64,000 bases of DNA from Cyanobacteria bacterium P01_D01_bin.156. GTDB lineage: Bacteria; Cyanobacteriota; Cyanobacteriia; Phormidesmidales; Phormidesmidaceae. Position numbers and translations under genes: made by a program. Each line of letters starts with the position of its first letter. Within the stretch, counting starts at the first letter, position 1. The notes below the pieces were generated by a model. It ran no database searches, had not been told where the DNA came from, and was given only the letters and a program-made list of their open reading frames with translations. Below are positions 9,113 to 28,883 of the stretch, piece after piece. The stretch is from contig JBCCQQ010000007.1 in the NCBI GenBank assembly GCA_039024555.1, positions 1 to 64,000 on the forward strand, written 5' to 3'.

Positions 9113-9901
9113 TCAGTGCTTAAAATGCCGCTTTAGCTCAGCCTTTAGCTCCTCTAATGAACCATTCATCAAGTCGAATATAGAAATTTGACTGGGGTAG
9201 TAAGTATCAATCAGTTTGTGGATTCGTTCATCTTCAGATGGGCTTGCTCCGCTGATAGTATTGGCTACTGCATCAGCTAGTCGGCCACTACCGGCAATGA
9301 TGATCACCTGCCTACCCAACTGCAAATTGACCTCTAAATCCTGCAGTGATATTTGCCCTCCATTTATAAGGAGAGTCATAGACGGACATGCACCCGCTAA
9401 AGCTGACGACAATTCAGCCAGCCAGTGAGATTCGCTACCCCAGTTTTCCCCAGGCACCAAAAAAAAGTGCGTGTGATGGGGTTCCAATTCCACTGGTGGC
9501 TCTTCAGCATCCTCAGGTACGTGGGAGCTGTCCCCATCCGGAAAAACAATCCTTTTGAGAGGAGCAACCCCCACTAAATTAAATTGGCCGTGGACATGAT
9601 GGCGAGCTTCTCCCATCATGTGGATAACCCCAGCATCGGTTCCACCGTCTAGTACGGTAATGCCCTGCTCATTAGATAGAGTGGCCAAGGGACCGTTAAA
9701 AAACTGAACTAACTTTGCCTGGCTTTCATCAGTCATGTAGCTTGCGCCACCAATAACCAGAAGCGTTGGTGTCGGGCTTTGTAAGCCCAATGCCGATAAA
9801 GCATGTATGTATGCCGTACCGTTAGCAACTTTTAGCATTTTGGCCAGCTGCCCATTTGAAAACCTATGTTCAACGAGTCCATGAGCTGACATTTTGGGCA
9901 T
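9113..9901 (-). CDS. SLOG-superfamily LSDAT (prokaryotic TRPM-like SLOG) protein
   Basis: PTLLVIGGA, VLDGGTDAGVIHMMG, LVGVAP, LEPHHTHFFLVPG..WGSE, LLINGG, IIAGSGRLAD; paired with a DUF4231/SLATT gene. Confidence 0.8.
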   Translation of the reverse strand: MPKMSAHGLVEHRFSNGQLAKMLKVANGTAYIHALSALGLQSPTPTLLVIGGASYMTDESQAKLVQFFNGPLATLSNEQGITVLDGGTDAGVIHMMGEARHHVHGQFNLVGVAPLKRIVFPDGDSSHVPEDAEEPPVELEPHHTHFFLVPGENWGSESHWLAELSSALAGACPSMTLLINGGQISLQDLEVNLQLGRQVIIIAGSGRLADAVANTISGASPSEDERIHKLIDTYYPSQISIFDLMNGSLEELKAELKRHFKH

Positions 9902-10060
9902 TACTGATATCTCTTAAAGAAGTTGGTTAGACAGTCTGTGCGAATTACCCCATTTACACCCTCAAAACCGCTCATGTCAAACCCGCTCAAAACTATTAAT
10001 AATAAGGTGGCCGATCTGATTCAGAGCCATTCAATAATGGTAGAGCTGAAGTTTCCTTTG

Positions 10061-11608
10061 TTAGGCTAGGCTTGCCCGAGCGCGCTCTACATATTTCGAG
10101 AAAACATCCCAACCATGATATCCACCGTTGACTAACTTGCGAACGCGTCGCCAGTCACCAGCGCGAGATGCATCGGCCACGCCTCGTTCTTTAAAGTAGC
10201 AAGTTAGCACTAGTGCTGATATTTCTGGATCCATCGCTAGATCTGGATTGTTCTCCAGGTCTACCCCCAATTTCTGACCATAGGTTTGATAGTTGGCTCG
10301 TCCCGTCAGCTGAATATAACCACGACCATGGTACTTCACTCCATCTCCAGGGTTCACATTCCCTAAATCAGCCCTATCTTCGTAGCGTTTCCAGTAACTT
10401 TCGCCGCCCCACTCATGAACAGGCTTGAACCCACCGGTTTCAATGCGTATTGTCGCCAGTAAGCCAATCAGCACAGACTTGTCTAAAATGTCGTACTTCT
10501 GCATGGCTGCTAAAATACCCGGCAAATAGAGCTTACAGTCTTCTAATGAACATTCTAAAATCTGCGACACTTCATCGGGGGTGACCAACTGTTTGACTTG
10601 AGTGGTAGCAGCAGTCGTCGTACTACTTTGAGCCGATACACTAGTCGTACTATTTTGTTTGGTCAAAATAGTTTTGAGAGCCTTAAAGTCTACTTTCTCT
10701 TCCCATTCAAGGGCATGTTCCCCTAAGGGAGGCAAAGAGCTGCTTGAAGAGAGGGTGCGTTTAGAAGAAGAAGTACGTGCCGCAGGTTGTTGACTTGTGC
10801 CAGAGCTCGACGACATCAGAGACTGTACTTCGGTAACCGGAGCACCGGCGGTACCATGACTTACCTCTACTGCCTCAGTACCTGAGGGCATAGAAATATC
10901 TAACAGTTCACCGGAGTATGCAACACTTTCCGACACTGGCGGCTGGCTCGCCTGCTGGGCAGCCAGTTCAGCTCTTTGCTGTTCCAAACGCTGAGTCCGA
11001 GCCTCCAGTTCTTGGTTAAGACGCATCAATGCTTTTTCAGCATTGTTCTTTGCTTCTTGTGTCTCTTCCTTCTCTTCTTCCTGTTTCTCTTCTAGACGGG
11101 CAATAAAACCTTCCACATCTTTTTGAATATAGGATTCTACCCGTTGAGCAAAGTTTTTGTAGGCATCGGAGTGAACTTTGAATTTACGATAAGGGCCTGC
11201 TAGCTGCATAAACTGCCAGCCCTCAATTTTCATGCTTTCTGCTGTGCTGCGATAGTTTCGATATTTGTCACCGTGGCCAAAAAATTCTTCTACAGCAGCG
11301 GAAATAGCTACCGCCTGACTGATGCCTAAGGCAACCCAACCCACGACTTCACCAAGGGTATATCTGCCTAAACGCTGGTCACTCCTAAACCCCACCATAG
11401 CCGGCACAATCACACCGCCAATAATCGTGACCATGCGTAGGCGAAAGTGTTGATTACGCTCTTTTGTAGCTCGTCCTTCCAGCCACATCACTTGGTCCAA
11501 CCAACGGTTTTTGAGAAACTCCTTACGTAAATCCGAAATCTCTAGCTTGTCGATCAACCCCCCTAAGGTCTGCTTGAGATAGTCATTGTAAGTATTTTTT
11601 TTGCCCAT
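10061..11608 (-). CDS. DUF4231/SLATT 2-TM domain + coiled coil + Ser/Thr-rich linker + GH19 lysozyme/chitinase domain
   Basis: N-terminus RWLDQVMW...two hydrophobic helices...KYRNYRSTAESMKIEGWQF...FAQRVE. C-terminus IETGGF.PVHE...GDGVKYHGRGYIQLTGRANY...LENNPDL...VNGG (endolysin-type GH19 signature). Confidence 0.82.
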   Translation of the reverse strand: MGKKNTYNDYLKQTLGGLIDKLEISDLRKEFLKNRWLDQVMWLEGRATKERNQHFRLRMVTIIGGVIVPAMVGFRSDQRLGRYTLGEVVGWVALGISQAVAISAAVEEFFGHGDKYRNYRSTAESMKIEGWQFMQLAGPYRKFKVHSDAYKNFAQRVESYIQKDVEGFIARLEEKQEEEKEETQEAKNNAEKALMRLNQELEARTQRLEQQRAELAAQQASQPPVSESVAYSGELLDISMPSGTEAVEVSHGTAGAPVTEVQSLMSSSSGTSQQPAARTSSSKRTLSSSSSLPPLGEHALEWEEKVDFKALKTILTKQNSTTSVSAQSSTTTAATTQVKQLVTPDEVSQILECSLEDCKLYLPGILAAMQKYDILDKSVLIGLLATIRIETGGFKPVHEWGGESYWKRYEDRADLGNVNPGDGVKYHGRGYIQLTGRANYQTYGQKLGVDLENNPDLAMDPEISALVLTCYFKERGVADASRAGDWRRVRKLVNGGYHGWDVFSKYVERARASLA

Positions 11609-12538
11609 TTTATTGAATTTAGATGCAGTGCTTGGTTAAACAGAAAGCTCATGTCATGTCATCAACAACTGACAAAAACCTATGAACGCTGCTGAGCTCT
11701 GGCTGAATATGTCTCAGAAACTATGGCACGGAGCATACCTTGTAGACCAGAGCAGGGTATTGGTTATATCAACAACGGCATCCTGTAAAGAAACATGGAG
11801 AGCTAAAAATTCTACATAATCTATTGAATGGAGATATCTATATTAAAGGTTAAGGTTGCTTGGCCTAAGTCTACCCACAGAAATCGCTGTTCCTTAAGTC
11901 TCTTAATGCAAATTACTGAGGGTAAAATACAGTAATTTGCGCCAAGTTAAACAAGGTATTGCTTACATTTCAAATCAAAATCCCCAAAACGCCTAAGTTG
12001 TAACGCAACTCAAAGATAGACTGCATCACTTTGGAAACCAATCTTGTGTTTTACAAAAATTCACTCAAGAGCAAGATAAGTTGATGTAATGCCCAGCGTT
12101 GGTCTAGTCAATATGTTCGAAGCATTGTTAGGAAAGTGCTAGATAAGCATTGCAAACGATTGCTGAAAGAAGGACTGGTAGCAAGTGGAACCCAGATGGG
12201 GTTGACCTATATTGTCAGTTGTTATGAAGTCGATAGATATGTAAGGGGGGCAGATTTGGGCGATGTTTGTGACAAAAGGCTTTTAGCGTTATCCAATATT
12301 TGGGTAAAACTACTGAGTCAGCCTGGTTTTCCTATTCTAAGTTTTAGCTGTTCTGAGCTATAACAGACAGAACTTTGGGCCTAATGTTTTCAGGCTTAAG
12401 TTTGCTTGTTACTGCATTATTGATTGAGCTAATAACACTAGGGTCGCACTGGCAAAAGTCTATGCAGATTTATGCGTGGAACATAGTCCTGGTAATAGGC
12501 ATTTATTTTGATCAGTCGCCCTCTTGCAGTGGTGTTTA

Positions 12539-12638
12539 GGGCTTGTTAAAAATTAGAATCATGGCGGCCCTGTGCATTTAAATCACGGCTTAACAAGCTT
12601 TTCAGGCTTAAATCGTGAAGTCGTTTCTTAACCGCTAC
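12539..12638. mobile_element. ~100 bp MITE, family A, copy 1
   Basis: Near-identical to 60568-60664; imperfect terminal inverted repeats (gggcttgttaaaaa...tttcttaaccgctac); flanked by TTA...TTA. Confidence 0.75.
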
Positions 12639-12699
12639 TTAGTCAGGGTAGTCAAGGGTTGACTGTAGTGTTGTCAGGTTGTTTCATCTACGAGTGATT

Positions 12700-13890
12700 A
12701 TGGATTTAACTCTAGAAAAGCTGGAGACAGAATATAAGGCGGCGTTTGACTCCTGTGCTTTGCAGTCTAATGTGGAACCTACGGTCAGGGGGATTGTGGG
12801 ACGCATGGTGCAGTTGAGATCGCACTATGAAACCGTTGAAAAAGCAACGGGTATGCCCTGGTGGTTTATTGGAATTCTGCACTACAGCGAGTGGAATTTT
12901 CGCGAACCCGGTCAATTTGAGCAGGAAATTACCAACGTATTGATCGCCAAAAAGTATCACCAGGCCAAGACCCGTACCCTAGGGGCAATGTTGTGGGGAT
13001 TTGACCTATGGAATGGTTTTCGTGGCGGGGCTGGTAAACAATCTACCTGGGTATGGGGAGGGACCACAGTACTTAAAGAACCAACATCGCGGGTAGGAGC
13101 CGCAGCTATTGTGCGCTACCTACAGCAGCAGCAGCTGATTGATATCGGCCAAAAATCAGCCATTGAACTACTGGTACTGACAGATACCTTATTTAAACTA
13201 CGGCCAGAACAAAGTGCCCGCCTATCTGAGCGCGATAAGATCCGGGTGTCCGCTGGTACCCGGTTGGAGCTACTAGGGGATGACCCAGATCAGGGTAACC
13301 ATGTCAAAATTCGCATCCCGGATGGTTTGCTGATTGGTCAATATGATCGCCTGGACTGGTATGTGTATGCCCAACACATTCAGCTAGAAGGCACTGAACC
13401 TAACAATAAACCCAACGATCCGCCCGTAGAACCCGAGACAAAAATTGCTGCTCCCGACCGGGGGCGTCCAATTACTGTCCCTAAGTTAGGTACGGTATAT
13501 CTTGGGGAGCCTATTTTGACTAATGGGAATTTTAGCTGGGCTGAAGCCACTAAAAATGGAAATCGTATCCCAGTGGATGAAACCGTTGTTGATGGCATTA
13601 TTAAAATCGCCGAGGTGATGGAAGAGGTGCGAGAACTCCTGGGAAATCGGCCTATTACCGTGAACTCCTGGTACCGAGATCCGACTTCTAATCGAAGAGC
13701 AGGGGGGGCTAGTCGCTCTCGGCATCTGTCTGGTGATGCTATCGATTTTGTGGTTAAGGGAATTTCTCCTCCCCAGGTCAATCGTCAGCTAGAACCCTGG
13801 TGGGGTAATCGCGGTGGCTTAGCTAGCGCATCAGTATTCACCCACCTGGACGCCCGTGGGTATCGAGCCCGCTGGAGCTACGGCTTCTAG
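12700..13890 (+). CDS. Cell-wall hydrolase: lysozyme-like N-domain, middle beta-domain, C-terminal peptidase M15A (Zn D-Ala-D-Ala type)
   Basis: YETVEKATGMPWWFIGILHYSE; NFSWAEAT; PITVNSWYR...NRRAGGASRSRHLSGDAIDF...FTHLDARG; no signal peptide. Confidence 0.8.
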   Translation: MDLTLEKLETEYKAAFDSCALQSNVEPTVRGIVGRMVQLRSHYETVEKATGMPWWFIGILHYSEWNFREPGQFEQEITNVLIAKKYHQAKTRTLGAMLWGFDLWNGFRGGAGKQSTWVWGGTTVLKEPTSRVGAAAIVRYLQQQQLIDIGQKSAIELLVLTDTLFKLRPEQSARLSERDKIRVSAGTRLELLGDDPDQGNHVKIRIPDGLLIGQYDRLDWYVYAQHIQLEGTEPNNKPNDPPVEPETKIAAPDRGRPITVPKLGTVYLGEPILTNGNFSWAEATKNGNRIPVDETVVDGIIKIAEVMEEVRELLGNRPITVNSWYRDPTSNRRAGGASRSRHLSGDAIDFVVKGISPPQVNRQLEPWWGNRGGLASASVFTHLDARGYRARWSYGF

Positions 13891-14136: not shown

Positions 14137-17100
14137 ATGACACAAACATCTTTCTCTCCCCAGGATGTTTTTATCTCCTATGGCAGAGCAGACAGTCGTT
14201 TGTTTGCCCGCAGGCTCAAGGATCGTTTAGTAGAGTTAGGATTGACAGTCTGGTTTGACTTTGACGATATCCCTCTAGGAGTGGACTATCAAAATCAGAT
14301 TAATGACGGCATTGAAAAGGCTGATAATTTTCTCTTTATTATTTCTCCCCACTCCGTTAATTCTCCCTACTGTGCCAAAGAAGTCGAGCTGGCCTTGGCT
14401 TGTAATAAGAGAATTATTCCGCTGTTGCACGTGGAAGAGATTAGTCAGGAAACCTGGCAGCAGCGAAATCCAGACGCCAGTCAACTCAACTGGCAGGCTG
14501 TCAAAGAAAAAGGCGCTCACAGTAGCTTCCCGAATATGCACCCGGAAATTAGCAAAATTAACTGGGTTTATCTACGGGAAGGGATAGATGATTTTGAGCA
14601 GGGGCTGGCAGGGCTCAAGGTCATATTAGATCGTCATCAATCCTATGTACATCAACATACTCGACTACTAACCAAGGCATTGGAGTGGGATCGCCAACAG
14701 CGTCAGCCCCAGTATTTGATGGCTAATAATGAGTTGTTAGCTGAAGCTGAAAAATGGCTTGGTACAAGGTTTAAGGATGATCAGCCTCCCTGTATTCCTA
14801 CGGATTTGCACTGTGAATTTGTTACCGAGAGTATCAAGGTTGCCCATGAGCAGATGACCCAAATTTTCATATCCTACAGTGAAGAGGATATGGACATTCA
14901 GCAAAAGATCCGTAAACGCCTGATGAGAGAGGGCTTTACGGTTTGGGTAAACACCGTGGATATTCCCACGGCAACGGATTTTCAACAGGCGATTAATCGA
15001 GGAATTGAAAAGGCTGACAATATTGTTTTGTTGCTATCTCCCAATTCTCTGGCATCACAGTATTGTCAGCAAGAACTGGCCTATGCCCGTCAATACCACA
15101 AGCGGATTATTCCTTTGCTGGTGCAGTCCATGGATGTGGCGGTACTGCCTGACGATCTGCGGATGGTACAGTTTATTGATTTCTCATCCCTGGCGTCTGA
15201 TCTACATTTTGATCGAGCAGTGGCTGAGCTGATCCGCACTCTAAACAGTTCAGCTGATTACTTAACACAGCATAAGCAGCTGTTGGTCAAGGCTTTAGCC
15301 TGGGAAAATCAGGGGCGCGATCGCAAATTTTTACTGAGATCGAATGACTTTGCGGCGGCCAATACATGGCTATCGGAGTCTAGCCCCATCGGCAGTGAAC
15401 CCACCGACCTCCACACCGCGTTTATTCAAGCTAGTCAGGGAATAAATCAGTTTTACGACGTCTTTATTTCCTATGGGCGAGCCGATAGTAAGGCATTTGC
15501 TACCGATTTATATCAGCGGTTAAGCGCTCAAGGATTTCAGGTCTGGTTTGATCAAAATGCGATTCCCTTGGGCGTCGACTTTCAAGAACAGATTAACGAT
15601 GGCATTGAAAAAAGCCATAACTTTATCTTTATCATCGCTCCCCACTCGGTTAATTCTCCCTACTGTGCCAAAGAGATCGCTCTTGCTCTGAAATATAACA
15701 AACGTATTATTCCAATTTTGCAGGCGGAAGAAATTAGCTACTCCACCTGGCAAGAGCGCAACCCTGGCGGAAGCTCAGACCAGTGGGATGCCTATAAAGC
15801 GAAGGGTAAGCATTCCAGCTTTCCGAATATGCATCCTGAAATCAGCAAGATTAACTGGATCTATGCGCGGAACGGCATGGATGATTTAAACGCCGCCATG
15901 AATGGGCTCATGGAATTATGCCATCGCCATGAGGACTATGTTCATCAGCATACTGAGCTACTGATTCAGGCGCTGGCGTGGGAGCGTCATCAGAATCAGA
16001 GTTCCTATTTACTAATGGGAGAAGAGCGGTTACAGGCCCAAAATTGGCTGCTTACGGAATTTACGGGCGAGCAGGCCCCCTGTTCTGCTAGCCTGCTACA
16101 GGCAAAATTTATCACCGAGAGTGTCAAGACTGCAGATAGTGGTATGACTCAGGTCTTTCTCTCCTATGCAGAGGAAGATTTAGCTACTCGCGAAATAGTG
16201 CGGTATCACCTGCTTCAGTCCGGGGTAACCGTATGGACTAACACGGTAGATATTCGTATGGGGGAAGACTTTGAAGCCGCCATCCAGCGAGGGATTGAGG
16301 AAGCTGACAATATAGTCTATTTAATTTCTCAGAAATCCCTAGACTCAGAATATTGTCAAATGGAGATAGACCAGGCATTGGATCTCAATAAAAGAATTAT
16401 TCCGATGCTGGTGGAGGACCTTGATGTCAATCTATTGCCAGATACGATTCGCAAAATTCAATTTATTAATCTAACCGATAACCAAGCCGCCATTGACTTG
16501 GAAAAGGACTTGGCAGAATTACTGAGAGCCATTCGACAAGATGCCCCTTACTATAACCAGCATAAGCGGCTATTAGTACGTGCCCTCAAATGGGAACGAC
16601 AAAAACAAAATCCTAGCCTGTTGTTACAGCGACGTATGCAGGAGACCTATTTTGCCTGGGCACAAAATGCTAAAGGCAGGGCCGTAGGAGGAGCGCTACC
16701 GCTGCAGTTAGCATTTTTAGAGGCGAGCCAGACTCAATCCCCTGATCAAACGCTAGGGGTATTTTTTATTCACCACGTTGATGATTTTGATTTTGCTCAG
16801 CGCTTAAATGAAACTCTCTTGGTTCAAGGGAAAAGCTCCTGGCTTGCTCCGGAAGGGGCTGTGGGCGAAATGGACCGTTGGGATGATACAAAACAGCTCA
16901 TGGATAATGCCGAGAATGTTTTGTTTTTGTTGTCTCCGAGTTCGTTGCGCTGTAAGGCCTGCCTAGAACAGCTCAGCTATGCTCAAGCTCAACAAAAACG
17001 GGTGTTGCCCGTGATTTATCGAGATGTGGTGAAATCCTTGGTGCCAGGGAGTATTAAGACCGTTCCTTGGAGTGATTTTCGACGACATGGGGGAGACTTC

Positions 17101-18618
17101 TTAGTCAACTTTGGTGAATTGTTTCGTACGCTAGAGAGTGATCCGTACCATGTGAAATCCCACACTCGCCTGTTAGTCAAAGCTGCTGAATGGGATACTG
17201 CCAAGCGGGACGACAGCTTTTTACTGCGGGGAAATGACTTAGCAGATTCTGAGCGTTGGCTGCAGCAGGCTAAAGGCAAAGTTCCCCCCGTTACCAATTT
17301 ACAAAAAACGTATATTCAAGCAAGTCAGGCCCTGCCGTTTAAGCGTATTAAGCCGCGTTCTGTGGCCCTAGCTACCGTGGTTAGTACTCTAGTGCTGGGG
17401 GCTGTGCGGTTATTTGGTGGATTGCAACCCCTAGAAACCCGTGCCTACGATCAGTTTCTTCGCTGGAAACCCAGTGAAGCCGAGCAGGATGAGCGTTTGC
17501 TGATTGTTAAAGTGGATAGCCAAAGTGGAGAATGGCTGCGATCGCAAATGATCGATGGTCAGTACGATCCCGGCATTGGCACCATTCCCGATGCGGCCCT
17601 GGCGGAGGCGATTGAGGTACTCAATCGGCATCAGGCCCAGGTAATTGGCCTAGATTTTTTCCGAGACTTTCCAACGGAGGAACCCCTGATCCAGCAGCTG
17701 GCCAGTACCGACAATTTGGTCGGTATCTGTCAGTCTGCTAGCCAGCAGGTGGAAGATATTCCCGAAATTCCTAGCGAAATGCCCAATACACCGGTGCGGT
17801 TTGCTAATTTTCTTTTGGATGGAGGCACCATTATTCGTCGTCAGCCCCTCACCCAATGGATTCCTGAGCCAGGGGCATGTACTACTGAAGAATCTTTTAC
17901 CCTACAGCTGACAGCTAATTATTTAGCCAATACGAACATTGACTATACAAATACGGGGGATGAGTACGACGTTGGCACGATTACCCTTGGGGATGTCACT
18001 GTTCCCAATCTGGATGGCAATGGTGCCGGGTATGTGTATCAATCTCCCTGGCAGGGTTGGAGTGGTTTAGAAGATTATCAAACCCTAATTAATTTTCGTA
18101 CCTACAGTGATGGTAGCGACGGACCTGCCACCGCTAAGTTCATCAATTTTGCCCAGCAGGTTTCCCTGGATGCGGTCATTCGAGATGAGGTACCTCCGGA
18201 ACTGATTCGTAATCGCATTGTCTTAATCGGATATACCGACTTTAGCGATCGCAACTCAGATGCCTTTAATACGCCGTACGGAGACTCCGTGCCTGGAGTT
18301 TACCTTCATGGGCAGATGGTCAGTCAGCTCGTGAATGCCGTGCTGGAAGATCGCCCTTTGGTGCGTTGGTGGCCATTTGTAGGGGAAACAAGTTGGATTT
18401 TACTCTGGTCTGGTGTGGGCGGCGCTATTTTTTGGATATTTGTCAGACCCGTTCCATTAGTTTTTGCCAGCCTGAGTTCCATTGGCCTGCTAACCTTGGC
18501 CTGTTATGGGTTGCTGGTTGGGCCAGTGCTTTGGATTCCCTGGGTGCCTGCCTTAATGGGTTGGGGAGCAACTAGCATAGGAGTCAGCTACATGACATAT
18601 CGGTTACGCAAGGGGTAA
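14137..18618 (+). CDS. Membrane receptor with five tandem TIR domains, TM, CHASE2 sensor and 3 TM
   Basis: Five repeats of the type VFISY...VWFD...IEKADN...SPYCAKE...KRIIP, each followed by a HxRLLxxALEW helical spacer. CHASE2 motifs LQPLETRAYDQF, VIGLDFFRD, RIVLIGYT, PGVYLHGQMVSQL, then three hydrophobic helices. Confidence 0.88.
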   Translation: MTQTSFSPQDVFISYGRADSRLFARRLKDRLVELGLTVWFDFDDIPLGVDYQNQINDGIEKADNFLFIISPHSVNSPYCAKEVELALACNKRIIPLLHVEEISQETWQQRNPDASQLNWQAVKEKGAHSSFPNMHPEISKINWVYLREGIDDFEQGLAGLKVILDRHQSYVHQHTRLLTKALEWDRQQRQPQYLMANNELLAEAEKWLGTRFKDDQPPCIPTDLHCEFVTESIKVAHEQMTQIFISYSEEDMDIQQKIRKRLMREGFTVWVNTVDIPTATDFQQAINRGIEKADNIVLLLSPNSLASQYCQQELAYARQYHKRIIPLLVQSMDVAVLPDDLRMVQFIDFSSLASDLHFDRAVAELIRTLNSSADYLTQHKQLLVKALAWENQGRDRKFLLRSNDFAAANTWLSESSPIGSEPTDLHTAFIQASQGINQFYDVFISYGRADSKAFATDLYQRLSAQGFQVWFDQNAIPLGVDFQEQINDGIEKSHNFIFIIAPHSVNSPYCAKEIALALKYNKRIIPILQAEEISYSTWQERNPGGSSDQWDAYKAKGKHSSFPNMHPEISKINWIYARNGMDDLNAAMNGLMELCHRHEDYVHQHTELLIQALAWERHQNQSSYLLMGEERLQAQNWLLTEFTGEQAPCSASLLQAKFITESVKTADSGMTQVFLSYAEEDLATREIVRYHLLQSGVTVWTNTVDIRMGEDFEAAIQRGIEEADNIVYLISQKSLDSEYCQMEIDQALDLNKRIIPMLVEDLDVNLLPDTIRKIQFINLTDNQAAIDLEKDLAELLRAIRQDAPYYNQHKRLLVRALKWERQKQNPSLLLQRRMQETYFAWAQNAKGRAVGGALPLQLAFLEASQTQSPDQTLGVFFIHHVDDFDFAQRLNETLLVQGKSSWLAPEGAVGEMDRWDDTKQLMDNAENVLFLLSPSSLRCKACLEQLSYAQAQQKRVLPVIYRDVVKSLVPGSIKTVPWSDFRRHGGDFLVNFGELFRTLESDPYHVKSHTRLLVKAAEWDTAKRDDSFLLRGNDLADSERWLQQAKGKVPPVTNLQKTYIQASQALPFKRIKPRSVALATVVSTLVLGAVRLFGGLQPLETRAYDQFLRWKPSEAEQDERLLIVKVDSQSGEWLRSQMIDGQYDPGIGTIPDAALAEAIEVLNRHQAQVIGLDFFRDFPTEEPLIQQLASTDNLVGICQSASQQVEDIPEIPSEMPNTPVRFANFLLDGGTIIRRQPLTQWIPEPGACTTEESFTLQLTANYLANTNIDYTNTGDEYDVGTITLGDVTVPNLDGNGAGYVYQSPWQGWSGLEDYQTLINFRTYSDGSDGPATAKFINFAQQVSLDAVIRDEVPPELIRNRIVLIGYTDFSDRNSDAFNTPYGDSVPGVYLHGQMVSQLVNAVLEDRPLVRWWPFVGETSWILLWSGVGGAIFWIFVRPVPLVFASLSSIGLLTLACYGLLVGPVLWIPWVPALMGWGATSIGVSYMTYRLRKG

Positions 18619-18626
18619 GACATCTC

Positions 18627-19703
18627 ATGATCAAACAATTCAGAACGATTTGGGCAATGTCAAATTCTACTCGCCGTCAGCTGACCTTCGCACTTAGCCT
18701 GATTCTTGGTCTTGGGGTTATGGAGCCTGCCCTTAACCCACCCACAGCGAATGCCGCCTGTTTTTTCTGGCAAGCCTGTGCCAGAAGCCGGGGAAGTGCC
18801 TCCAATACCAGGGCAGGGGGTAAGCGTACGGGGCGTATCCGCGGTGGCAACAATGCCGAAATTCCCTATGTCATTTCGCCGCGAAATGCCTGGATTCGTC
18901 AGCCTGAAGTAGATGAGGCCAATTACACCATTCGCTGGAATCCGGTCGAGGGGACTGCAAGCTACACGGTGCAACTTTGGTTATGGACCTATGAACAGGA
19001 TGAACCTAACGTAGCTCTTTGGGAAGATACTGTTGACGGTACCGTTACTGAAGTTGAGTTTCCTAACCTGGTGCTAACACCCGGTGCCTACTATTCCATA
19101 GAAGTCACGACCGATAGTGGTGTGTCTTCTGATTTAGATGAAGGCTTTTATAAATCTGGTTTCCAGCTATTGTTTAGCGAAGATTACGAGATCCTAAAGC
19201 TGCAACTATCGGATATTGCTGCTGATATTCCTGATGACACCGACAATGTTCTAGCCGCCGCTGATGGGCTTGGAGACTTGACAGAAGAGTCTGCTTTGGC
19301 CAAAGCGGGTGTCTTTTTTCTAGAGGAAATGTATGCGGATGCATTGATTGTTTTGCAGGAATTAATAGCAAGCAACAAAGCATCAGATTTGGTCTATACC
19401 GCGCTAGGCGATACGTATAGTCGCACAGGGCTAAACCAGCTATCGATTGCGTCCTACAGAGAAGCATTAAAGCTCGCTCAATCAAACAGCGACCTACTCA
19501 GCGAAGCCACAATACGAGTGAATTTGGCAGATGTCTATGCCACCCTCGGTGAATTTGATGATGCCCTGGGCCAGTTATCATTGGCGCGTCTGGCTTATAT
19601 TGAGCTGGCGGAAGAGGCAGAAGTTGAACGGCTAAACCGTCGTATTAGCCTGCTATCTCAGCTGGTTGCTCAGCAAAATGAGTCTGCCGATCAAGATTTA
19701 TAG
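18627..19703 (+). CDS. Secreted protein with DUF928-like/FN3-like N-region and C-terminal TPR repeats
   Basis: Signal-peptide-like N-terminus, RAGGKR..GG, PYVISPR..IRWNPVEG, TPR helices (ALGDTYSRTG..YREAL; NLADVYATLG); 8 nt after the TIR-CHASE2 stop. Confidence 0.65.
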   Translation: MIKQFRTIWAMSNSTRRQLTFALSLILGLGVMEPALNPPTANAACFFWQACARSRGSASNTRAGGKRTGRIRGGNNAEIPYVISPRNAWIRQPEVDEANYTIRWNPVEGTASYTVQLWLWTYEQDEPNVALWEDTVDGTVTEVEFPNLVLTPGAYYSIEVTTDSGVSSDLDEGFYKSGFQLLFSEDYEILKLQLSDIAADIPDDTDNVLAAADGLGDLTEESALAKAGVFFLEEMYADALIVLQELIASNKASDLVYTALGDTYSRTGLNQLSIASYREALKLAQSNSDLLSEATIRVNLADVYATLGEFDDALGQLSLARLAYIELAEEAEVERLNRRISLLSQLVAQQNESADQDL

Positions 19704-19850
19704 AAAAACGCCGTTGCTGAGCCTCGGAAGGACTATCAGACAAAATCTCAAAGTTTACCTCCTGAACTGACCCTAGCAGAAACAAACATTCAGGACTTTA
19801 GTCATCCCTATTACTGGGCTGTCTTTAGCTTAGTGGGCAGTCCTTGGTAG
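19704..19850 (+). pseudogene. Orphan 3' end of a CHAT-domain gene
   Basis: Translates KNAVAEPRKDYQTKSQSLPPELTLAETNIQDFSHPYYWAVFSLVGSPW*. It matches the C-termini of the two downstream paralogues (QDFSHPYYWAAFNLVGSPW*) and has no in-frame ATG. Confidence 0.8.
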
Positions 19851-19995
19851 TAAAGCCTTAAAGCATGTGCTCTTCCTTGGACTGAGTATTGTTACTTAAT
19901 GAGGGCATAAACTTCAGAATCAATCTACTCAACAGGGGTACCTCCCAAACATTCTAAGCAAATTATTAAGTCTCACACCTAACGATATTGCTCAC

Positions 19996-22900
19996 ATGGT
20001 TCGCCTATTTAATCGTCATCACACAGCTTCCCTACTCATCACATTCATCAGTCCTGTAGCCCTGGTGACGACTGCCCAAGCCCAGTCCATCACCTCAGCA
20101 GATAACGCTACAACCGTTCAGCAAATTGGTGATCAGTATCAAATTGATGGGGGAAATGTATCTGGAGATAGCACCACCCTAATCCACAGCTTTGACCAGT
20201 TTGGTCTACTCACGGGCGAATCGGCTCAGTTTAGCAATGCGGCCACTATCGAAAACATTATTGGCCGCATTACCGGTGGTGATGCCTCCATTATTGATGG
20301 GTTGCTGGCGGTGGATGGCAATGCCAATTTGTATTTGCTCAATCCATCCGGCATATTTTTTGGCGAAAATACCCAGCTCAATCTTGCCGGTTCCTTTTCC
20401 GCATCCACAGCCACGGGTCTTAACTTTGGTGATGAACTACTCGATACGTTAGGAACTAATGACTATGCATCGTTAACCGGTGCCCCCACAGGCTATGAGT
20501 TTGCCACGGAAACCGGTGCGCTAATCAATACAGGCGATTTAGCCGTTACATCAGGGCAGTCCCTCACCCTGCTGGGTGGCCAGGTGATCAACACAGGCCA
20601 GCTATCTAGCGGTGAAGTGTTGGTCATGGCTGTGCCTGGAGAAAACCGGGTACGCCTTAGCCAGTCAGGATCATTGCTAGGTTTGGAACTGGAAACCTTA
20701 CCCAATGCAGCTCCCACAGCTGCCTTTACCGCTTCAACGGTGCCAGCCCTGCTGACTGGGGCTGGTGACTTAGGTATGGCCACAGATATTACTGTGAATG
20801 CTGACGGTAGTGTGAGTTTGTCGGGCTCATCGCTACAGATTCCGATGGAGGAGGGCACAGCTGTTGTTAGCGGTCAGCTAACGACCGATGGTGGCAATGT
20901 TGGTGTATTAGGAGAACAGATTGCCCTGGTGGGTGCTGCGATTGATGCTTCGGGTGATGCTGGCGGTGGCACCGTACTCATTGGTGGTGATGAGCTGGGC
21001 AATGGTAGCGTGCCTAATGCAGAGGCAACTGTTATTGATAAGAATTCTGTTGTTCTTGCTGATGCGAGAGATACGGGCAATGGTGGCAAGATTGTTGCCT
21101 GGGGAACAAACCTGTTGCGATCTGCGGGGCAGCTGTTTGCGCGTGGTGGAGTCAACGGGGGTGATGGTGGTTTTATTGAGACGAGTAGTTTAGGTCAGTT
21201 AGAAGTTAGTGCTACACCCGATGTGTCTGCTGTCAATGGAATCGGTGGGCTATGGCTATTAGATCCTGCTACTATTCGAATTGTTGCTGGTAGTGGTGCC
21301 ACTAACATCAGCAACACAAATCCTTTCATAGTAGGAGGAGATATCACTGATGCGCTGTTGGGTGTGGATTTGATTACAGCTGCTTTACAAGGCGGTAATA
21401 CCGTCGAAATCAGAACCACCGGGACGACGCCTGGTGATGGCAACATTACCCTAGAAACACCTCTCGACTATGACGATATTGATAACAGCTCATTGACTCT
21501 ATCAGCTGCAGGCTCAATTGATATTCAGGCCGATATTATTGATGGCGAAGTTTTAGTATTTGACCCTGTTAGTTCGACTGAAAGTCCCGATGAACAGAAT
21601 CTAACGCTGACATTACTAGCAAACGAACAAATTAATATCAACGGGAATATTGAGACTGGCACAGGAGCTCTTACTATCATATCTGATCAGGGCAACATTG
21701 ATATAACAAGGCGTTTAGTGACAACATCTGGAGATGTCTCTATTAGAGCTCCTGAAGGTAGGGTTACTATATCTAATGTGATTCACACCTCATTAGATCG
21801 CTTTTCAGAAGCTTTTGGTCTTCCCGAAGAACAATTGATTGCTGATACTCCGGGAGGTGACGTAACAGTTTCAGCACGAAGAGCTATTGCAGTTGGTGAT
21901 ATTATCACAAGTTCTAATGGCGATCTGGCAGGAAGTATTTCTCTTGAGTCGCAAATCTCGACTATTCAAACGGGGAAAATTCTCGCAAATATTAGTGACT
22001 CAGTTGATGGGAACATCACAGTTGCGATTAACCATGGTGGTGGTGATTTTCTTCCCTTTAAGGTTGGTGATAATTCGATTAATGGTACTGCAGGTGTAAT
22101 CTCTTTAGGAAATGATATTGTTTTCGAGAATAGGAGCTTTTTAGGATCTTCTGAAACGCCCAATGGAAATACGACCCTCTCATTTGCACCAAACAGTATT
22201 ATCCTTTTTGGGGATGAGACGTCGGAGGGATTGGATCAAGCTACAGAGCTTGCAACGGGAGAAATTATCGGTCGCTTTGATGATCTTAATATATCGATAG
22301 AGAATAGTACTGGCCAAGTATTCGGCCTTATGGGTGATAATTTTCCTGATATATCGATAGATGATATTACTGGCGAAGCATTCTCTGATGGTCAACTTGT
22401 TGCATTCGCTCCTCTTCGTGCAGATGAAAGTGGAGATGCAAGTGTGCTCAATGCGCTAGGTGTAGATTCAAGTGTGTCCAATACGCTACAGCTGCTTCCA
22501 CAAACGGAACCTGAGTTCGTGCGAGTTCTAGAAGAATCAACTGATATCCAAATTGGTGAAGTGCAATTAGGCAGAAGCCTTCTAACAGGTTTAATTTTTC
22601 CTATTAGAGATGTTTTATTGCCGGTCGATACTACTAGTAGCGGATTTGGCCCAGTAGGTCTTTCTATTAATGCAGAAACTGGCTTCGCAACAGCTATAGG
22701 TGAAAACGGTGATCTAGAGGTTGTTGGAAAAGCAACTATGGGTTCTTTAGACTCTATCTTGGAAGATCCTGTTACAGGTGGTCTGGACCTAAGCCTTCTT
22801 GCGGGTTCTGTCATAAATCTGCGACCAGAAGTGGACCTCGTTGAGATACCAGTGATAGATGAACTGACTGGCCAGTCAATCGGTAAGGTGACATTGAATG

Positions 22901-24879
22901 AAAGTCGTATAACCGGGAATGTCTTCAATCCAGTTGGTTCAACAAGTACCTCATTGTTGGTCGATAGAGACTCTGGTGAAGATATAGTAATTGATGCAAC
23001 AACTGGATTGGCGACAACTATAGACAATGGTCAAGAGATTGTTGTTGGAGAAGCAACTATGGATTTGTCCAACTCCATCTTGGTAAATCCTGGGACAAAT
23101 AAAGTAGAACTAAGCGGGCTTGTCGGTAACGATATAGAGTTGGTGGCTGCAACAGTTCCTGTTGAGATCCCAGTTGTAGACTTCTCAACAAATCAAACAC
23201 TTGGTCAAGTGTCTTTATCTCAAAACGGATTGACGGGTGAAATTATTAACTCAGGAGCTTCCCCATTGTCGGGGCAATTAATACTGCCAGAAACAATGCA
23301 GTCCGGAGATATTGAAATTGATCTGGAGACAGGCTCTATTGCTGATTTGTCTGGCAATATTGTTGGACAAGTTCTAGACACCTCACAACTTACTAGCTTG
23401 ACTGCGGATGGAGAACTGGAAATCGCTTTATTATTGCCACCAGCCAATGTGCCGCAAGAAGGAGCGCAGCCCCAAGTACTTGCACCAGAAGAGATAGCAC
23501 TTAGCTGTATTACTGATTGTTATGAACTTGAAACCTCCAGTGATTCTGTGCAATTTTTTGGAGGAGAAATTGATGTTTTGCCAGAACCTGAGTTAGCTTT
23601 TCAATATTTTGAACAGCAGATAACACAAGAAGTTGCTAATTATTTAGGGATAGAGGCAAGTGGTAGTGTCACAGGTGAGATATCCGCTAGCACCGAATCT
23701 TCGACTACCCTAGACTTACCCAAGGCAAAAGCTAGACTTAAGCAAGCGCAAGCGCAAACCGGTAAGCGCCCAGCGCTGATTTATGCTGTATTTGGCAACG
23801 CTGAAGAAGGCCTTGATAATGTTCTGCAAAGTACTGCACCGTTAGATCCGCTAGAGCTTCTACTGGTAACCGCAGATGGAGAGCCTATATATATCCAACT
23901 GCCTGCAAATCGGCGTGACGTTCTCGCACTAGCCCATCGTTTTCGGCGACAGGTAGCATCTCCTAGCCGTGTTGGCACCCAATCATATTTATCGATTGCG
24001 CAAGAGCTATATCAATTGCTCATTGCGCCTCTAGCAGCCGAACTGGCTGCTCAAGAGATCGATACCATTAGCTTTATTACCGATGCTGGGTTAAGGTCGC
24101 TGCCCTTGGCCGCTCTCCATGATGGCGAAAACTTTCTAATCGAAAACTACAATATTGGGTTGATGCCCAGCCTTACTCTCACAGATTTCACCTACAAAGA
24201 TATTCGTGATGTAGACGCGCTGGTGGCGGGCACATCTGTCTTTTCTGATCAGATTCATTTGCCCAGTGTCCCGGTGGAACTAAACGCAATTTCTTCTCAG
24301 TGGCGTAGTGCGTTGATCCAGGGCGATACCTTTAATTTGGAAACCCTTAAGGGAGAGCGGCAAACCAATGGCTACGGGATCTTACATCTAGCTACCCATG
24401 GTGAATTTAACCCAGGGGATTTATCGAAGTCTTATTTACATTTACACAACGACAAACTAGGACTACACGAGCTCCGCACCCTGGGTTTACATAAGCCCGG
24501 AGTAGAGCTAATTACCCTAAGTGCCTGCCAGACCGCATTGGGAAGCCGTACCGCTGAATTAGGCTTTGCAGGCTTTGCTGTATTAACCGGTGCTAAAACA
24601 GCGGTTGCCAGTCTGTGGAACATCAGTGATGACGCCTCAGCCGGGTTAATGATTGAATTTTATCAACAGCTTCAGGGCAGTCAGCCCACTATCAAAGCGG
24701 AGGCCCTACGCCAGGCACAGCTGGCCATGCTGCGCGGACAGATTACTGTTGAAAATGACCAGCTCAAGTTGCCCAGTGGTAATCATTCATTACCGACTGG
24801 CTTAGGAGAAGATGCAGTACAGGACTTTAGCCATCCCTATTACTGGGCTGCATTCAACCTAGTGGGCAGTCCTTGGTAG
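19996..24879 (+). CDS. Secreted filamentous-haemagglutinin (TPS-domain) protein with C-terminal CHAT caspase-like peptidase, paralogue 1
   Basis: Signal peptide ...AQAQ; HSFDQFGL, NIIGRITGG.ASIIDG, NLYLLNPSG; CHAT catalytic motifs HLATHG and LSACQTA; HPYYWAAF. Confidence 0.88.
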   Translation: MVRLFNRHHTASLLITFISPVALVTTAQAQSITSADNATTVQQIGDQYQIDGGNVSGDSTTLIHSFDQFGLLTGESAQFSNAATIENIIGRITGGDASIIDGLLAVDGNANLYLLNPSGIFFGENTQLNLAGSFSASTATGLNFGDELLDTLGTNDYASLTGAPTGYEFATETGALINTGDLAVTSGQSLTLLGGQVINTGQLSSGEVLVMAVPGENRVRLSQSGSLLGLELETLPNAAPTAAFTASTVPALLTGAGDLGMATDITVNADGSVSLSGSSLQIPMEEGTAVVSGQLTTDGGNVGVLGEQIALVGAAIDASGDAGGGTVLIGGDELGNGSVPNAEATVIDKNSVVLADARDTGNGGKIVAWGTNLLRSAGQLFARGGVNGGDGGFIETSSLGQLEVSATPDVSAVNGIGGLWLLDPATIRIVAGSGATNISNTNPFIVGGDITDALLGVDLITAALQGGNTVEIRTTGTTPGDGNITLETPLDYDDIDNSSLTLSAAGSIDIQADIIDGEVLVFDPVSSTESPDEQNLTLTLLANEQININGNIETGTGALTIISDQGNIDITRRLVTTSGDVSIRAPEGRVTISNVIHTSLDRFSEAFGLPEEQLIADTPGGDVTVSARRAIAVGDIITSSNGDLAGSISLESQISTIQTGKILANISDSVDGNITVAINHGGGDFLPFKVGDNSINGTAGVISLGNDIVFENRSFLGSSETPNGNTTLSFAPNSIILFGDETSEGLDQATELATGEIIGRFDDLNISIENSTGQVFGLMGDNFPDISIDDITGEAFSDGQLVAFAPLRADESGDASVLNALGVDSSVSNTLQLLPQTEPEFVRVLEESTDIQIGEVQLGRSLLTGLIFPIRDVLLPVDTTSSGFGPVGLSINAETGFATAIGENGDLEVVGKATMGSLDSILEDPVTGGLDLSLLAGSVINLRPEVDLVEIPVIDELTGQSIGKVTLNESRITGNVFNPVGSTSTSLLVDRDSGEDIVIDATTGLATTIDNGQEIVVGEATMDLSNSILVNPGTNKVELSGLVGNDIELVAATVPVEIPVVDFSTNQTLGQVSLSQNGLTGEIINSGASPLSGQLILPETMQSGDIEIDLETGSIADLSGNIVGQVLDTSQLTSLTADGELEIALLLPPANVPQEGAQPQVLAPEEIALSCITDCYELETSSDSVQFFGGEIDVLPEPELAFQYFEQQITQEVANYLGIEASGSVTGEISASTESSTTLDLPKAKARLKQAQAQTGKRPALIYAVFGNAEEGLDNVLQSTAPLDPLELLLVTADGEPIYIQLPANRRDVLALAHRFRRQVASPSRVGTQSYLSIAQELYQLLIAPLAAELAAQEIDTISFITDAGLRSLPLAALHDGENFLIENYNIGLMPSLTLTDFTYKDIRDVDALVAGTSVFSDQIHLPSVPVELNAISSQWRSALIQGDTFNLETLKGERQTNGYGILHLATHGEFNPGDLSKSYLHLHNDKLGLHELRTLGLHKPGVELITLSACQTALGSRTAELGFAGFAVLTGAKTAVASLWNISDDASAGLMIEFYQQLQGSQPTIKAEALRQAQLAMLRGQITVENDQLKLPSGNHSLPTGLGEDAVQDFSHPYYWAAFNLVGSPW

Positions 24880-25022
24880 TAAGGTCTGAACTGTGTGATT
24901 TCATTCAGGCTGAGCGTTCCTTAATGAAGGAATACAATTCAGAGGTAGGCTATCCCATAGGATTAAACTCTAAGTACCCCAAGCAAAGTACTGAGTTTCA
25001 AACCTAGAGAGATACTGCTCAC

Positions 25023-28000
25023 ATGGTTCGCCTATTCAATCGTCATCACACAGCTGCCCTACTCATCACATTCATCAGTCCTGTAGCCCTGGTGACGACT
25101 GCCCAAGCCCAGTCCATCACCTCAGCAGATAACGCTACAACCGTTCAGCAAATTGGTGATCAGTATCAAATTGATGGGGGAAATGTATCTGGGGATAGCA
25201 CCACCCTAATCCACAGCTTTGACCAGTTTGGCCTACTCACGGGCGAGTCGGCTCAGTTTAGCAATCCAGCCACTATCGAAAATATCATTGGCCGCATCAC
25301 CGGTGGTGATGCCTCGATTATTGATGGGTTGCTGGCGGTGGATGGCAATGCCAATTTGTATTTGCTCAATCCATCCGGCATATTTTTTGGCGAAAATACC
25401 CAGCTCAATCTAGCCGGTTCCTTTTCTGCATCCACCGCCACGGGCCTTAACTTTGGCGATGAGCTACTCGATACGTTAGGTACCAATGACTATGCATCGT
25501 TAACCGGTGCCCCCACAGGCTATGAGTTTGCGACTGAAACCGGTGCCCTAATCAATGCGGGGGATTTGGCGGTTACATCGGGGCAATCCCTCACCCTGTT
25601 GGGTGGCCAGGTGATCAATACAGGCCAGCTATCTGGCGGTGAAGTGTTGGTCATGGCTGTGCCTGGAGAAAACCGGGTACGCCTTAGCCAGTCAGGATCA
25701 TTGCTAGGTTTAGAACTAGAAACCTTACCTAATGCAGCCCCCACAGCTGACTTTACGGCTTCAACTGTGCCTGCTCTACTGACTGGGGCTGGTGATTTGG
25801 GTATGGCTACAGATATTACTGTGAATGCTGACGGTAGTGTGAGTTTGTCGGGCTCATCTCTACAGATTCCGATGGAGGAGGGCACAGCTGTTATTAGCGG
25901 TCAGCTGACGACCGATGGTGGCAATGTTGGTATATTGGGAGAACAGATTGCTCTGGTAGATGCAACACTTGATGCTTCGGGTGATGCTGGCGGTGGCACC
26001 GTACTCATTGGTGGGGATGATCTAGGCAATGGTACAGTGCCTAATGCAGCGGCAACTGTTATTGATGAGAATTCTGTTGTTCTGGCCGATGCGAGAGATG
26101 CGGGTAATGGCGGCAAGATTGTTGCTTGGGGAACAAACCTGTTGCGGTCTGCAGGGCAGTTGTTTGCCAGGGGAGGAGTCAATGGTGGTGATGGTGGTTT
26201 TATTGAGACGAGTAGTTTAGGTCAGTTAGAAGTTAGTGCGACACCAGATGTGTCTGCTGTCAATGGAAGTGGCGGGCTATGGCTATTAGATCCTGCCAAT
26301 ATTCGAATTGTTGCAGGTGATGGCTCAACTAATATTAATAGTACTCCGGGAACAGTAGCTACTTCAGAGGTCATTACTCCAGCTATGCCAGGGATGACGA
26401 TAACAGACCCTATTACAGGTGTGATGACAATTACACCCGGTACTCCAGAGACAATTACTCCGGCGACTCCAGGAACTCCAAGTATTTTTAGCTCAGGTGC
26501 TGCACCACCTGAATCGACATTGGGAGTCGACTTAATTACCGATGCACTGGCTAATGGGACCAATGTCGAAATTATTACAACTGGTGATACCCCTGGCGAT
26601 GGCAATATTATTCTAGAAACTCCGCTTGATTACCATCAGACCGGTAGCAATAGTCTAAGTTTGATTGCAAAAGGTGAGATTCAGATCCTGGCTGATATCT
26701 TTGACAGTGAGTTGACTACTTTTACTGAAACGGTAATGGTTACAACTGGCCCTCCTCTGATAGGCCCTGACGGACTTCCAATTCCTGGCACTGAAACAAC
26801 AACGACAACGACGACGATAACAACAACGGAGTCGTTTGATGATTTGAATCTCACGCTTGAGGCTAATGAGCAAATTACTGTGACGGGCTCTATTAATTCA
26901 GGCGAAGGCGACATTAATATCTCGTCTCTTGAGGGAGATATTAATATCAGCAATAATTTAACCACCTCGGGCGGGGACGTATCTCTTAGCGCACCACAAG
27001 GAGATATTGTTTTTGATTCCATTGACACAGGTAGTAATCTCGCATCTGGCAATGGTGGTGACGTCACTATTGCCGCCATAGAAGGGACTGTTAGGGGCAT
27101 AGGCGGACCTACAACAATCGCAACCGTTGGAGAACTTTCAGATGGAAGCATCACCATTACCCACGGAGGTGGTCTGGACGATACCCCTTTCACAGTTGGT
27201 GATGCATCTGTAAACGGAACAGCGGGCTCGATTATTACCGGAGAAACCACTCTGGAAAATTTATCCTTTCCAGGCAGTGTGGAAATAGGCAATATTCAGA
27301 TTCTAACTCCAGATTCTGAGGTGGCAGAAACAGAAGAAACAACTGAAACTTGCATCACTGACTGTGAGGATGAAGAGCTAACTGAAAATGCTATTCAAGT
27401 TCCCTTAGAAGCCGTCAATGTGTTGCCAGCACCGGAACTGGCTATGCAAACCTTGGAACGACAGTTAACAGAAGAAGTCAGTGATTATTTGGGCCTAGAA
27501 GATAGTGTAGGTTCAACTAACTCAACTGAGCTTGCCAACTTACCCATGGCTCAAAACAGCTTGCGCAAAGTGCAAGGACAAACGGGTAAACGTCCTGCCC
27601 TTATTTATGCCGTATTTGGCTCTGGGGAGACTGCTGACGATGCTGAAAATATTCTTCAACAGTCGATGCCATCAGATAAGTTAGAACTTTTACTAGTTAC
27701 TGGCGACGGCCCGCCTAAGTATATTCAAATGTCAGAAACACGAGCAGAGGTTCTACAACTGGCCCATCGTTTCCGGCGTCAGGTAGCATCCCCGAGTCGT
27801 GTGGGCACTCAATCGTATTTACCGATTGCGCAAGCGCTATATCAATTACTCATCGAGCCCCTAGTAGCAGAACTTAATGCCCAAGAGATCGATACCATTA
27901 GCTTTATTACCGATGCTGGCTTGAGATCATTGCCTTTGGCCGCTCTCCATGATGGCGAAAGCTTTTTAATCGAAAACTACAATATCGGGTTAATGCCCAG

Positions 28001-28709: not shown

Positions 28710-28720
28710 GGATGCTAAGT

Positions 28721-28883
28721 TAAGCCGAGAAATTTTGGCTATGGACGAATTTGGAGTTTTGAATCCGGAGTTCAAAAAGGTAGGATATTCCAAATTCAAG
28801 ACTCTGAAGACCTTGGGAAATCATTCTGCTCTGTGGTCGGTGGGTGGTCGTCCGGCGCAAGCCATGACAATTTTCTAGGCTCA
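28721..28883. repeat. ~160 bp dispersed structured repeat (MITE-like), family B, copy 1
   Basis: Starts taagccgagaaattttggct and ends aattttctaggctca (imperfect inverted ends); aligns by eye with 48171-48312. Confidence 0.65.

Follow-up and report, generated by a model that had tools for sequence, protein, structure and literature searches.

A gene that joins a membrane domain to a wall enzyme was analysed in a 64,000-nucleotide stretch of Cyanobacteria bacterium P01_D01_bin.156 (contig JBCCQQ010000007.1), which is called the window below. Its product combines, in one open reading frame (ORF), a SLATT (DUF4231) domain, a coiled coil, a Ser/Thr-rich linker and a GH19 domain, and on the minus strand it is followed, 159 bp downstream, by a gene for an LSDAT protein of the SLOG kind (Table 1). 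This composition, which an earlier note made from the letters alone had proposed, was borne out by profile searches: the 515-aa protein matched DUF4231 (PF14015) at residues 38-146 (100 bits, cut-off 24.7), NCBIfam SLATT_1 (NF033634; 96.5 bits, cut-off 41) and GH19 (32.6 bits, cut-off 25.5), and Ser and Thr make up 35% of linker residues 221-338. The same note placed the fusion in operon order with the LSDAT gene; the fusion gene does come first on the common strand, and a promoter and terminator scan gave a result at chance level. Homologues of the window's proteins are cyanobacterial and Leptothoe/Adonisia-like. A single assembly piece of 3,636 bases covers the fusion and LSDAT genes with zero differences, and since it may be, and probably is, the run from which the window was built, it does not count as independent support.

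The GH19 domain is predicted to be an enzyme of the endolysin (muramidase) kind that has been kept intact. Both candidate catalytic glutamates and the motif pointed out in the earlier note are present (IET, E390; VHE, E399; GRGYIQLTGRANY), and E390 and E399 were invariant in all 90 SLATT+GH19 proteins found among the query and the best 120 of its 329 homologues. The nine-residue distance between them, together with the GRG-x-x-QLTG-x-x-NY motif, is what defines the GH19 endolysin subgroup, and it matches the spacing of the catalytic E51 and E60 in PaGH19Lys, a Pseudomonas muramidase described as having no chitin activity (PMC12329726). In the PDB search the top four matches were endolysin or phage entries (9ms7 at E 4e-23) versus E 2e-9 for the best chitinase, and in the PHROG search an endolysin family ranked first (E 2e-45) versus E 4e-20 for a chitinase-labelled one, which upholds the endolysin-type assignment made in the note. 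Over 13 orthologue pairs the ratio of non-synonymous to synonymous change (pN/pS), synonymous sites being nearly saturated, was 0.09 for GH19, 0.15 for SLATT and 0.47 for the linker, and GH19 identity among same-genus orthologues was 89%. The linker is variable in sequence and roughly 49-222 aa long in homologues. An action of such muramidases on cytoplasmic wall precursors was considered and rejected, because the MurNAc-GlcNAc bond that they cleave is not found in lipid II.

The SLATT part contains two hydrophobic segments, at about residues 55-75 and 88-106. None was found before residue 53, and the h-region of a signal peptide is thus absent, just as the earlier note had said. In the AlphaFold2 model (67 sequences, mean pLDDT 82.5) the domain forms an antiparallel hairpin of long helices (H26-72 and H85-135) with the hydrophobic segments at its tip. 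Mean Lys plus Arg counts over 67 sequences were 5.0 before the first transmembrane helix (TM1) and 3.3 behind the second (TM2), against 1.7 in the loop of 10 residues that joins them, and fused and unfused forms share this pattern. Furthermore, in seven natural fusions among the best 150 of 4,053 representatives, LSDAT, a soluble nucleotide-binding fold, stands N-terminal to SLATT. Because of the charge bias, the predicted hairpin and these fusions, both SLATT ends are most likely cytoplasmic (N-in/C-in), which would place the enzyme on the cytoplasmic side, where the note had expected it. A complex prediction for two SLATT chains with LSDAT (score 0.01, mark 0.32) was used neither for nor against binding.

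For the SLATT model Foldseek gave no PDB match at E<=0.001 and two giant-virus or unnamed proteins in the viral library; unnamed viral clusters came from the ESM Atlas. Many giant-virus bins (L149-L177) encode DUF4231 relatives of 22-32% identity, and the SLATT model found a Mimiviridae protein with a TM of 0.78. Named phages gave distant matches only (19-25% identity), in Staphylococcus and Streptococcus phages.

The enzyme carried by SLATT is, as judged from domain comparison, an interchangeable wall-type module that has been swapped repeatedly, a feature that the earlier note had overlooked. Among the query and the best 120 homologues, 90 proteins were SLATT+GH19, 27 were SLATT+GH24 phage lysozyme (the GH24 pattern E-x8-D-x8-T being present in 27/27), three were SLATT only and one was GH19 only; among their named hosts are Leptothoe, Leptolyngbya, Coleofasciculus, Moorena, Lyngbya, Nostoc, Anabaena, Calothrix and Scytonema. 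A one-off fusion or an assembly artefact, which the note had named as a possible refutation, was therefore rejected, the same architecture being shared by many separate assemblies. A SLATT profile search of 1.84 billion representatives returned 4,053 matches, of which the best 150 were classified: 18 had C-terminal wall-type modules (GH19, GH24, C39_2, NlpC/P60-like or M15, with an SH3-like module alone in two), seven were LSDAT-SLATT fusions and 125 were neither. In a Pfam scan of 40 longer representatives, every C-terminal catalytic domain found belonged to these five types, and the partners recorded for SLATT were two GH19 clades, GH24, C39_2, NlpC/P60-like and M15. The NlpC/P60-like label is our presumption from a Cys/His pattern and weak PHROG endolysin matches, and C39_2 is inferred to be active on the wall. 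Two proteins, P0088 and P0121, are 94.7% identical over their first 190 residues and 17.6% over their last 165, and differ in their enzyme (GH19 in one, GH24 in the other); in P0207, SLATT is fused to the SH3-like+M15 arrangement of the stand-alone second hydrolase beside the query. The SLATT tree, from a quick unfinished search of the 79 domains that an 80% redundancy filter left of 192, likewise interleaves enzyme types. Unrelated wall enzymes have converged on SLATT, and peptidoglycan is therefore the likely target. In three genomes (L078, L085 and L095, from G029, G194 and G388) tandem SLATT paralogues were seen, one copy ending in an NlpC/P60-like tail and another carrying SH3-like+C39+GH19; the latter runs into the contig end in G194, and the tandem adjoins a TIR-WD40 gene in two of the three.

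Table 1 Features of the SLATT-GH19 locus, with positions counted from the first letter of the window
Feature	Position	Strand	Basis or description
SLATT-GH19 fusion gene	10061-11608	minus	515 aa; DUF4231/SLATT_1 and GH19 matches above curated cut-offs
SLATT/DUF4231 domain, residues 1 to ~185	11054-11608	minus	profiles, hydropathy, AlphaFold2 model (mean pLDDT 82.5)
Ser/Thr-rich low-complexity linker, residues 221-338	10595-10948	minus	composition, homologue comparison
GH19 endolysin-type domain (predicted)	10064-10588	minus	PDB, PHROG and motif comparison
LSDAT_prok SLOG gene, 262 aa	9113-9901	minus	LSDAT_prok profile; TRPM2 MHR1/2 are the nearest solved relatives
Second wall-hydrolase gene, divergent	12700-13890	plus	weakly lysozyme-like N-terminal fold, middle module common to other hydrolases, C-terminal M15 peptidase
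Gene for five TIR domains and a CHASE2 sensor; candidate signal generator	14137-18618	plus	Pfam/NCBIfam profile matches

The downstream gene encodes a protein that matched LSDAT_prok with 192.8 bits (cut-off 25.4), and its profile found the N-terminal MHR1/2 domains of TRPM2 as the best solved structures (E 1e-19). In human TRPM2, ADP-ribose is described as being held by Y295, R358 and R302 (PMC6759353). By alignment Y295 corresponds to W154 and R358 to R207, and both positions are invariant in 56/56 LSDAT sequences. SLATT and LSDAT are tightly linked, in line with the note: among 401 genomes of the phylum, strong LSDAT matches occurred in 31 (after three weak ones, G088, G248 and G016, had been removed from 34), SLATT in 31 and both in 28, with the two genes adjacent in 21 of these 28, besides the seven one-chain fusions mentioned above. 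Three genomes, each from a different family, have a NAD(P)HX repair enzyme next to LSDAT or SLATT (L082:11219-12811, L088:816-2390, L111:7330-8889), and in another (L079:6294-8784, G032) NAD synthase and an NrtR-type regulator lie beside the LSDAT/SLATT pair, with similar-sized genes in G044 and G059. A link of LSDAT/SLATT with NAD metabolism is possible.

The earlier note had also passed over the two divergent genes, which recur with the fusion. In 31 fusion loci (42 loci minus 11 without a hydrolase fusion, 18 of the 31 being close kin of the window's genome), LSDAT was present in 27, a TIR gene in 24 and the second hydrolase in 28. Around LSDAT at large, TIR genes lay in 11 of 31 windows (six families) but in none of 34 control windows taken from those genomes (six of 40 control regions had been removed, five being nonexistent and one only 1 kb); this comparison is biased towards the loci, from which the TIR profile itself derives, and kin do not count as independent. 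Genome G380 was left out of the counts. Of the five TIR motifs in the TIR/CHASE2 protein, four keep the glutamate that we take to be catalytic. The middle module of the second hydrolase is presumably SH3-like; for its N-terminal domain Foldseek found no match, and in a wide structural search the lysozyme superfamily supplied almost all of the top matches, with Z reaching 6.1, which is a weak lead only. At least six further ORFs of the genome (G000) contain M15, GH24, GH19 or C39 domains (C1:315057, C2:160347, C3:95893, C23:38994, C41:26898, C48:17408), and the C41 ORF has the same N-terminal domain as the second hydrolase. In 11 Nostocales loci the gene order is another one and both enzymes differ (GH24 on SLATT; an endolysin-like domain of phrog_33083), with LSDAT in nine, TIR in seven and the second hydrolase in all 11. 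In all 11 a gene of about 111 aa lies between SLATT-GH24 and the second hydrolase (L048:7528-7860 and its equivalents in L049-L058); it matched no Pfam or PHROG family, and no homologue of it was found in the window's genome. In two Coleofasciculus loci a TPR-S protein replaces TIR. TPR-S proteins in the place of TIR beside LSDAT or SLATT were seen in L060:1490-4669, L061, L073:6171-8528, L098:9432-11642 and L106:2382-4556, one of them with an N-terminal SLATT_1 and one with a cyclase domain.

Two related arrangements were found in which the effector or the carrier differs. In G026 and G366 (L109:8985-13594, L110:8993-13540) LSDAT, a patatin phospholipase that matches PADLOC effector models and TIR-WD40 lie in a row, SLATT was not found with this query, and the row is a candidate for a second three-gene system. 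On a 70.9-kb tailed-phage contig with terminase, portal, head and sheath genes (L148:2547-4788, G401), a TIR gene overlaps a SLATT gene whose product is 53% identical to the query, and a peptidoglycan-binding endolysin-like gene follows; LSDAT was not found in this phage record, which is 68% complete. The cassette might time lysis through TIR, or it might be a defence module that the phage carries, and TIR-SLATT in phages is mentioned elsewhere (PMC9503650).

As for the setting of the locus, a plasmid search gave no match, and a prophage origin was rejected, the neighbours being housekeeping genes and no prophage gene being found among the ORFs scanned in the window. The interval from the fusion gene to the second hydrolase holds a dispersed repeat (12538-12642), about 105 bp long, for which the genome gave 47 matches. 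After the TIR-CHASE2 gene (18627-30929) come a TPR protein, two TPS-CHAT (haemagglutinin and caspase-like) genes and a bacterial dynamin-like gene.

Prokaryotic systems of LSDAT (SLOG) and SLATT were reportedly predicted by Burroughs et al. in 2015. Passages in papers citing that work describe the predicted coupling of SLOG with SLATT (bioRxiv 10.64898/2026.04.29.721553; PMC7159879; PMC6459960), and DUF4231 is described as occurring in defence islands (PMC10799925). The present locus is like those systems in that a SLOG nucleotide sensor is linked or fused to a two-transmembrane SLATT, a predicted pore-forming effector. It is set apart from them, as far as those descriptions go, by the interchangeable C-terminal wall hydrolases of SLATT and by the second hydrolase gene that travels with it. 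Thoeris type VII is described as an experimentally tested, cyclic ADP-ribose (cADPR)-activated anti-phage system of TIR and the SLATT effector ThsH that also occurs in Cyanobacteriota, and type III as several TIR proteins with a SLOG effector (bioRxiv 10.64898/2025.12.03.692087); the main text of this preprint contains no mention of lysozyme, peptidoglycan or CHASE2. TIR, SLATT and SLOG parts are common to these types and to our locus, which like type VII has a SLATT-domain effector; unlike in them, its TRPM-type SLOG is a protein apart, its five TIRs are joined to CHASE2 and its effector is fused to a lysin. Moreover, the two-gene operon of TIR and effector that belongs to type VII was seen only in the phage contig, and the locus was thus not assigned to type VII. 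With TRPM2 it shares the homologous MHR1/2 sensor and the invariant equivalents of Y295 and R358, whereas its LSDAT is stand-alone, an equivalent of R302 is absent and the membrane part is an unrelated two-helix hairpin.

The label of a one-chain holin-endolysin, given in the earlier note, describes a possible way of working; as a family assignment it did not stand, since Pfam, NCBIfam and PHROGs yielded no match to a holin (only to phrog_7395, a family without assigned function). As in holin-endolysin lysis, including the host-kept Pseudomonas Lys (PaGH19Lys, PDB 9EOI) and explosive lysis, a GH19 of muramidase kind would be held behind the inner membrane until a lesion forms; unlike there, one chain would carry both functions under the apparent control of a nucleotide sensor. 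The locus belongs neither to Thoeris type VII nor to a holin family but may work like both. Every part is known singly, and the SLATT-lysin fusion is the element that would be new: no published one appeared among the papers found on SLATT, SLOG/LSDAT, Thoeris and lysis, beyond which the 2015 survey and the preprint supplement with its 29 putative Thoeris types may bear on novelty.

The reading that we favour, at about even odds, makes the fusion the killing component of a Thoeris-like circuit: a signal of the ADP-ribose type would open a SLATT lesion for the tethered lysin. The TIR enzyme would make an ADP-ribose derivative in response to a phage or to some other cue perceived by CHASE2, WD40 or TPR-S domains, and the LSDAT protein would bind this signal. 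SLATT would then oligomerise into a membrane lesion, through which the muramidase would pass to the wall on its long tether or after clipping. The second hydrolase would assist, the cell would lyse, and in a filament the outcome would be the removal of a single cell. In favour of this reading stand, from sequence and genome comparison, the architecture, the conserved catalytic residues, the repeated module swaps and the linkage to LSDAT, TIR and a second hydrolase, along with the predicted topology and hairpin, the TRPM2-like sensor, the patatin exchange, the phage cassette and the tested type VII system. We infer the signal, its gating, the lesion and the lysis by analogy with Thoeris type VII and with the logic of holin and endolysin. 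That the path is complete from receptor to lysis, with a TIR receptor, a TRPM2-like sensor and a one-chain pore-endolysin by which a filament cell digests its own wall and cuts itself out, is a tentative and rather doubtful extension of this.

Several observations weigh against such a circuit. The two hydrophobic segments are only moderate (Kyte-Doolittle 1.6 and 1.9), getting a folded enzyme across on a tether would take a large lesion or a cut, and no cleavage site was found. The human R302 contact aligns with a non-conserved hydrophobic position of LSDAT. A hydrolase fusion was present in only six of the 31 SLATT-positive genomes sampled, so the LSDAT-SLATT pair works without the hydrolase. 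No TIR gene was found in 20 of the 31 LSDAT windows, and the comparison with control windows has the bias named above. In the window itself the TIR gene is divergent, 2.5 kb off and beyond the hydrolase gene, at the head of a CHASE2/TPS-CHAT signalling cluster, and its link to the fusion may be looser. PADLOC found only generic domain matches in the window and none to LSDAT, its match to the fusion was weak and confined to the coiled coil, and no complete known defence system was detected. Most anti-phage systems are patchy in distribution, unlike this locus, which occupies a fixed position next to carB and was found in 18 of 21 genomes of its genus; the three in which it was missed are fragmented assemblies.

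The near-universal occurrence in the genus, which suits a developmental trigger no less than a phage one, the fixed carB site and the lack of a complete known defence system nearby keep a developmental or stress trigger in play. The same parts could serve single-cell lysis that breaks filaments (necridia, hormogonia release) or releases DNA or vesicles in mats, and besides the stable inheritance, the extracytoplasmic-type CHASE2 sensor of the TIR partner would suit this. Necridia are described as regulated dead cells that release hormogonia (PMC9415839), and host-kept holins with an endolysin as a cause of explosive lysis in Pseudomonas (PMC8131026). The exchange of SLATT for patatin and the cassette on the phage contig, however, are reminiscent of conflict systems, and with SLATT in only 31 of 401 genomes the parts are patchy across the phylum, even though necridia occur commonly in filamentous groups. 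We consider a developmental role unlikely. The at least six other ORFs with wall-enzyme domains, the linkage of the second hydrolase in 28 of 31 fusion loci and the large TPS proteins that are often near could also point to non-lethal export, SLATT and the hydrolases opening a local path through membrane and wall for other proteins without signal peptides, as in holin/hydrolase (type 10) secretion. Yet in at least one locus the TPS proteins are served by a ShlB-type route of their own, a conserved cargo gene did not show up and the patatin replacement suits killing better, which leaves export improbable.

An antibacterial weapon, with the swappable hydrolase as a polymorphic toxin tip that is set free by vesicles or when the cell lyses and SLATT as its anchor or means of delivery, would account for the recent exchange of catalytic tips on a near-identical N-terminus, and the 111-aa gene after the fusion in the 11 Nostocales loci could be its inhibitor. 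This gene is missing from the window and without a homologue found in its genome, though, the genus orthologues keep one conserved GH19 (89% identity) with no diversification, and no secretion signal was seen; we give this reading a slim chance. Finally, TM2 is moderately hydrophobic and rich in Gly, Ala and Ser, and if it were not retained in the membrane the protein could be a periplasm-facing wall remodeller; alternatively, as GH19 includes chitinases and a chitinase-labelled PHROG did match, it could be a chitinase against fungal parasites, in either case independent of nucleotide gating. Against this, the helices flanking the hairpin belong to one predicted fold that is conserved alike in unfused forms, the exchange with GH24 and M15 points to a peptidoglycan substrate, and the related PaGH19Lys is described as having no chitin activity (PMC12329726), which makes this explanation very improbable.

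Many cyanobacteria thus possess a small membrane protein with a swappable wall enzyme near a relative of the TRPM2 sensor, often together with TIR genes, and by analogy with known systems this is likely a signal-triggered self-lysis switch. Known TIR/SLOG immune circuits kill by NAD drain, nucleic-acid cutting or membrane depolarisation; a tethered, swappable endolysin, if confirmed, would add wall destruction, i.e. full self-lysis, to the outputs of such circuits. It would then be a nucleotide-signalling system with a peptidoglycan hydrolase as its effector and a candidate molecular basis for necridia. The locus offers a concrete, testable set of genes with which to study regulated cell death in filamentous cyanobacteria and a small bacterial model for the ADP-ribose sensor of TRPM2 before it joined a channel, and it hints at how those wall hydrolases of cyanobacteria that lack a signal peptide might get to their substrate.

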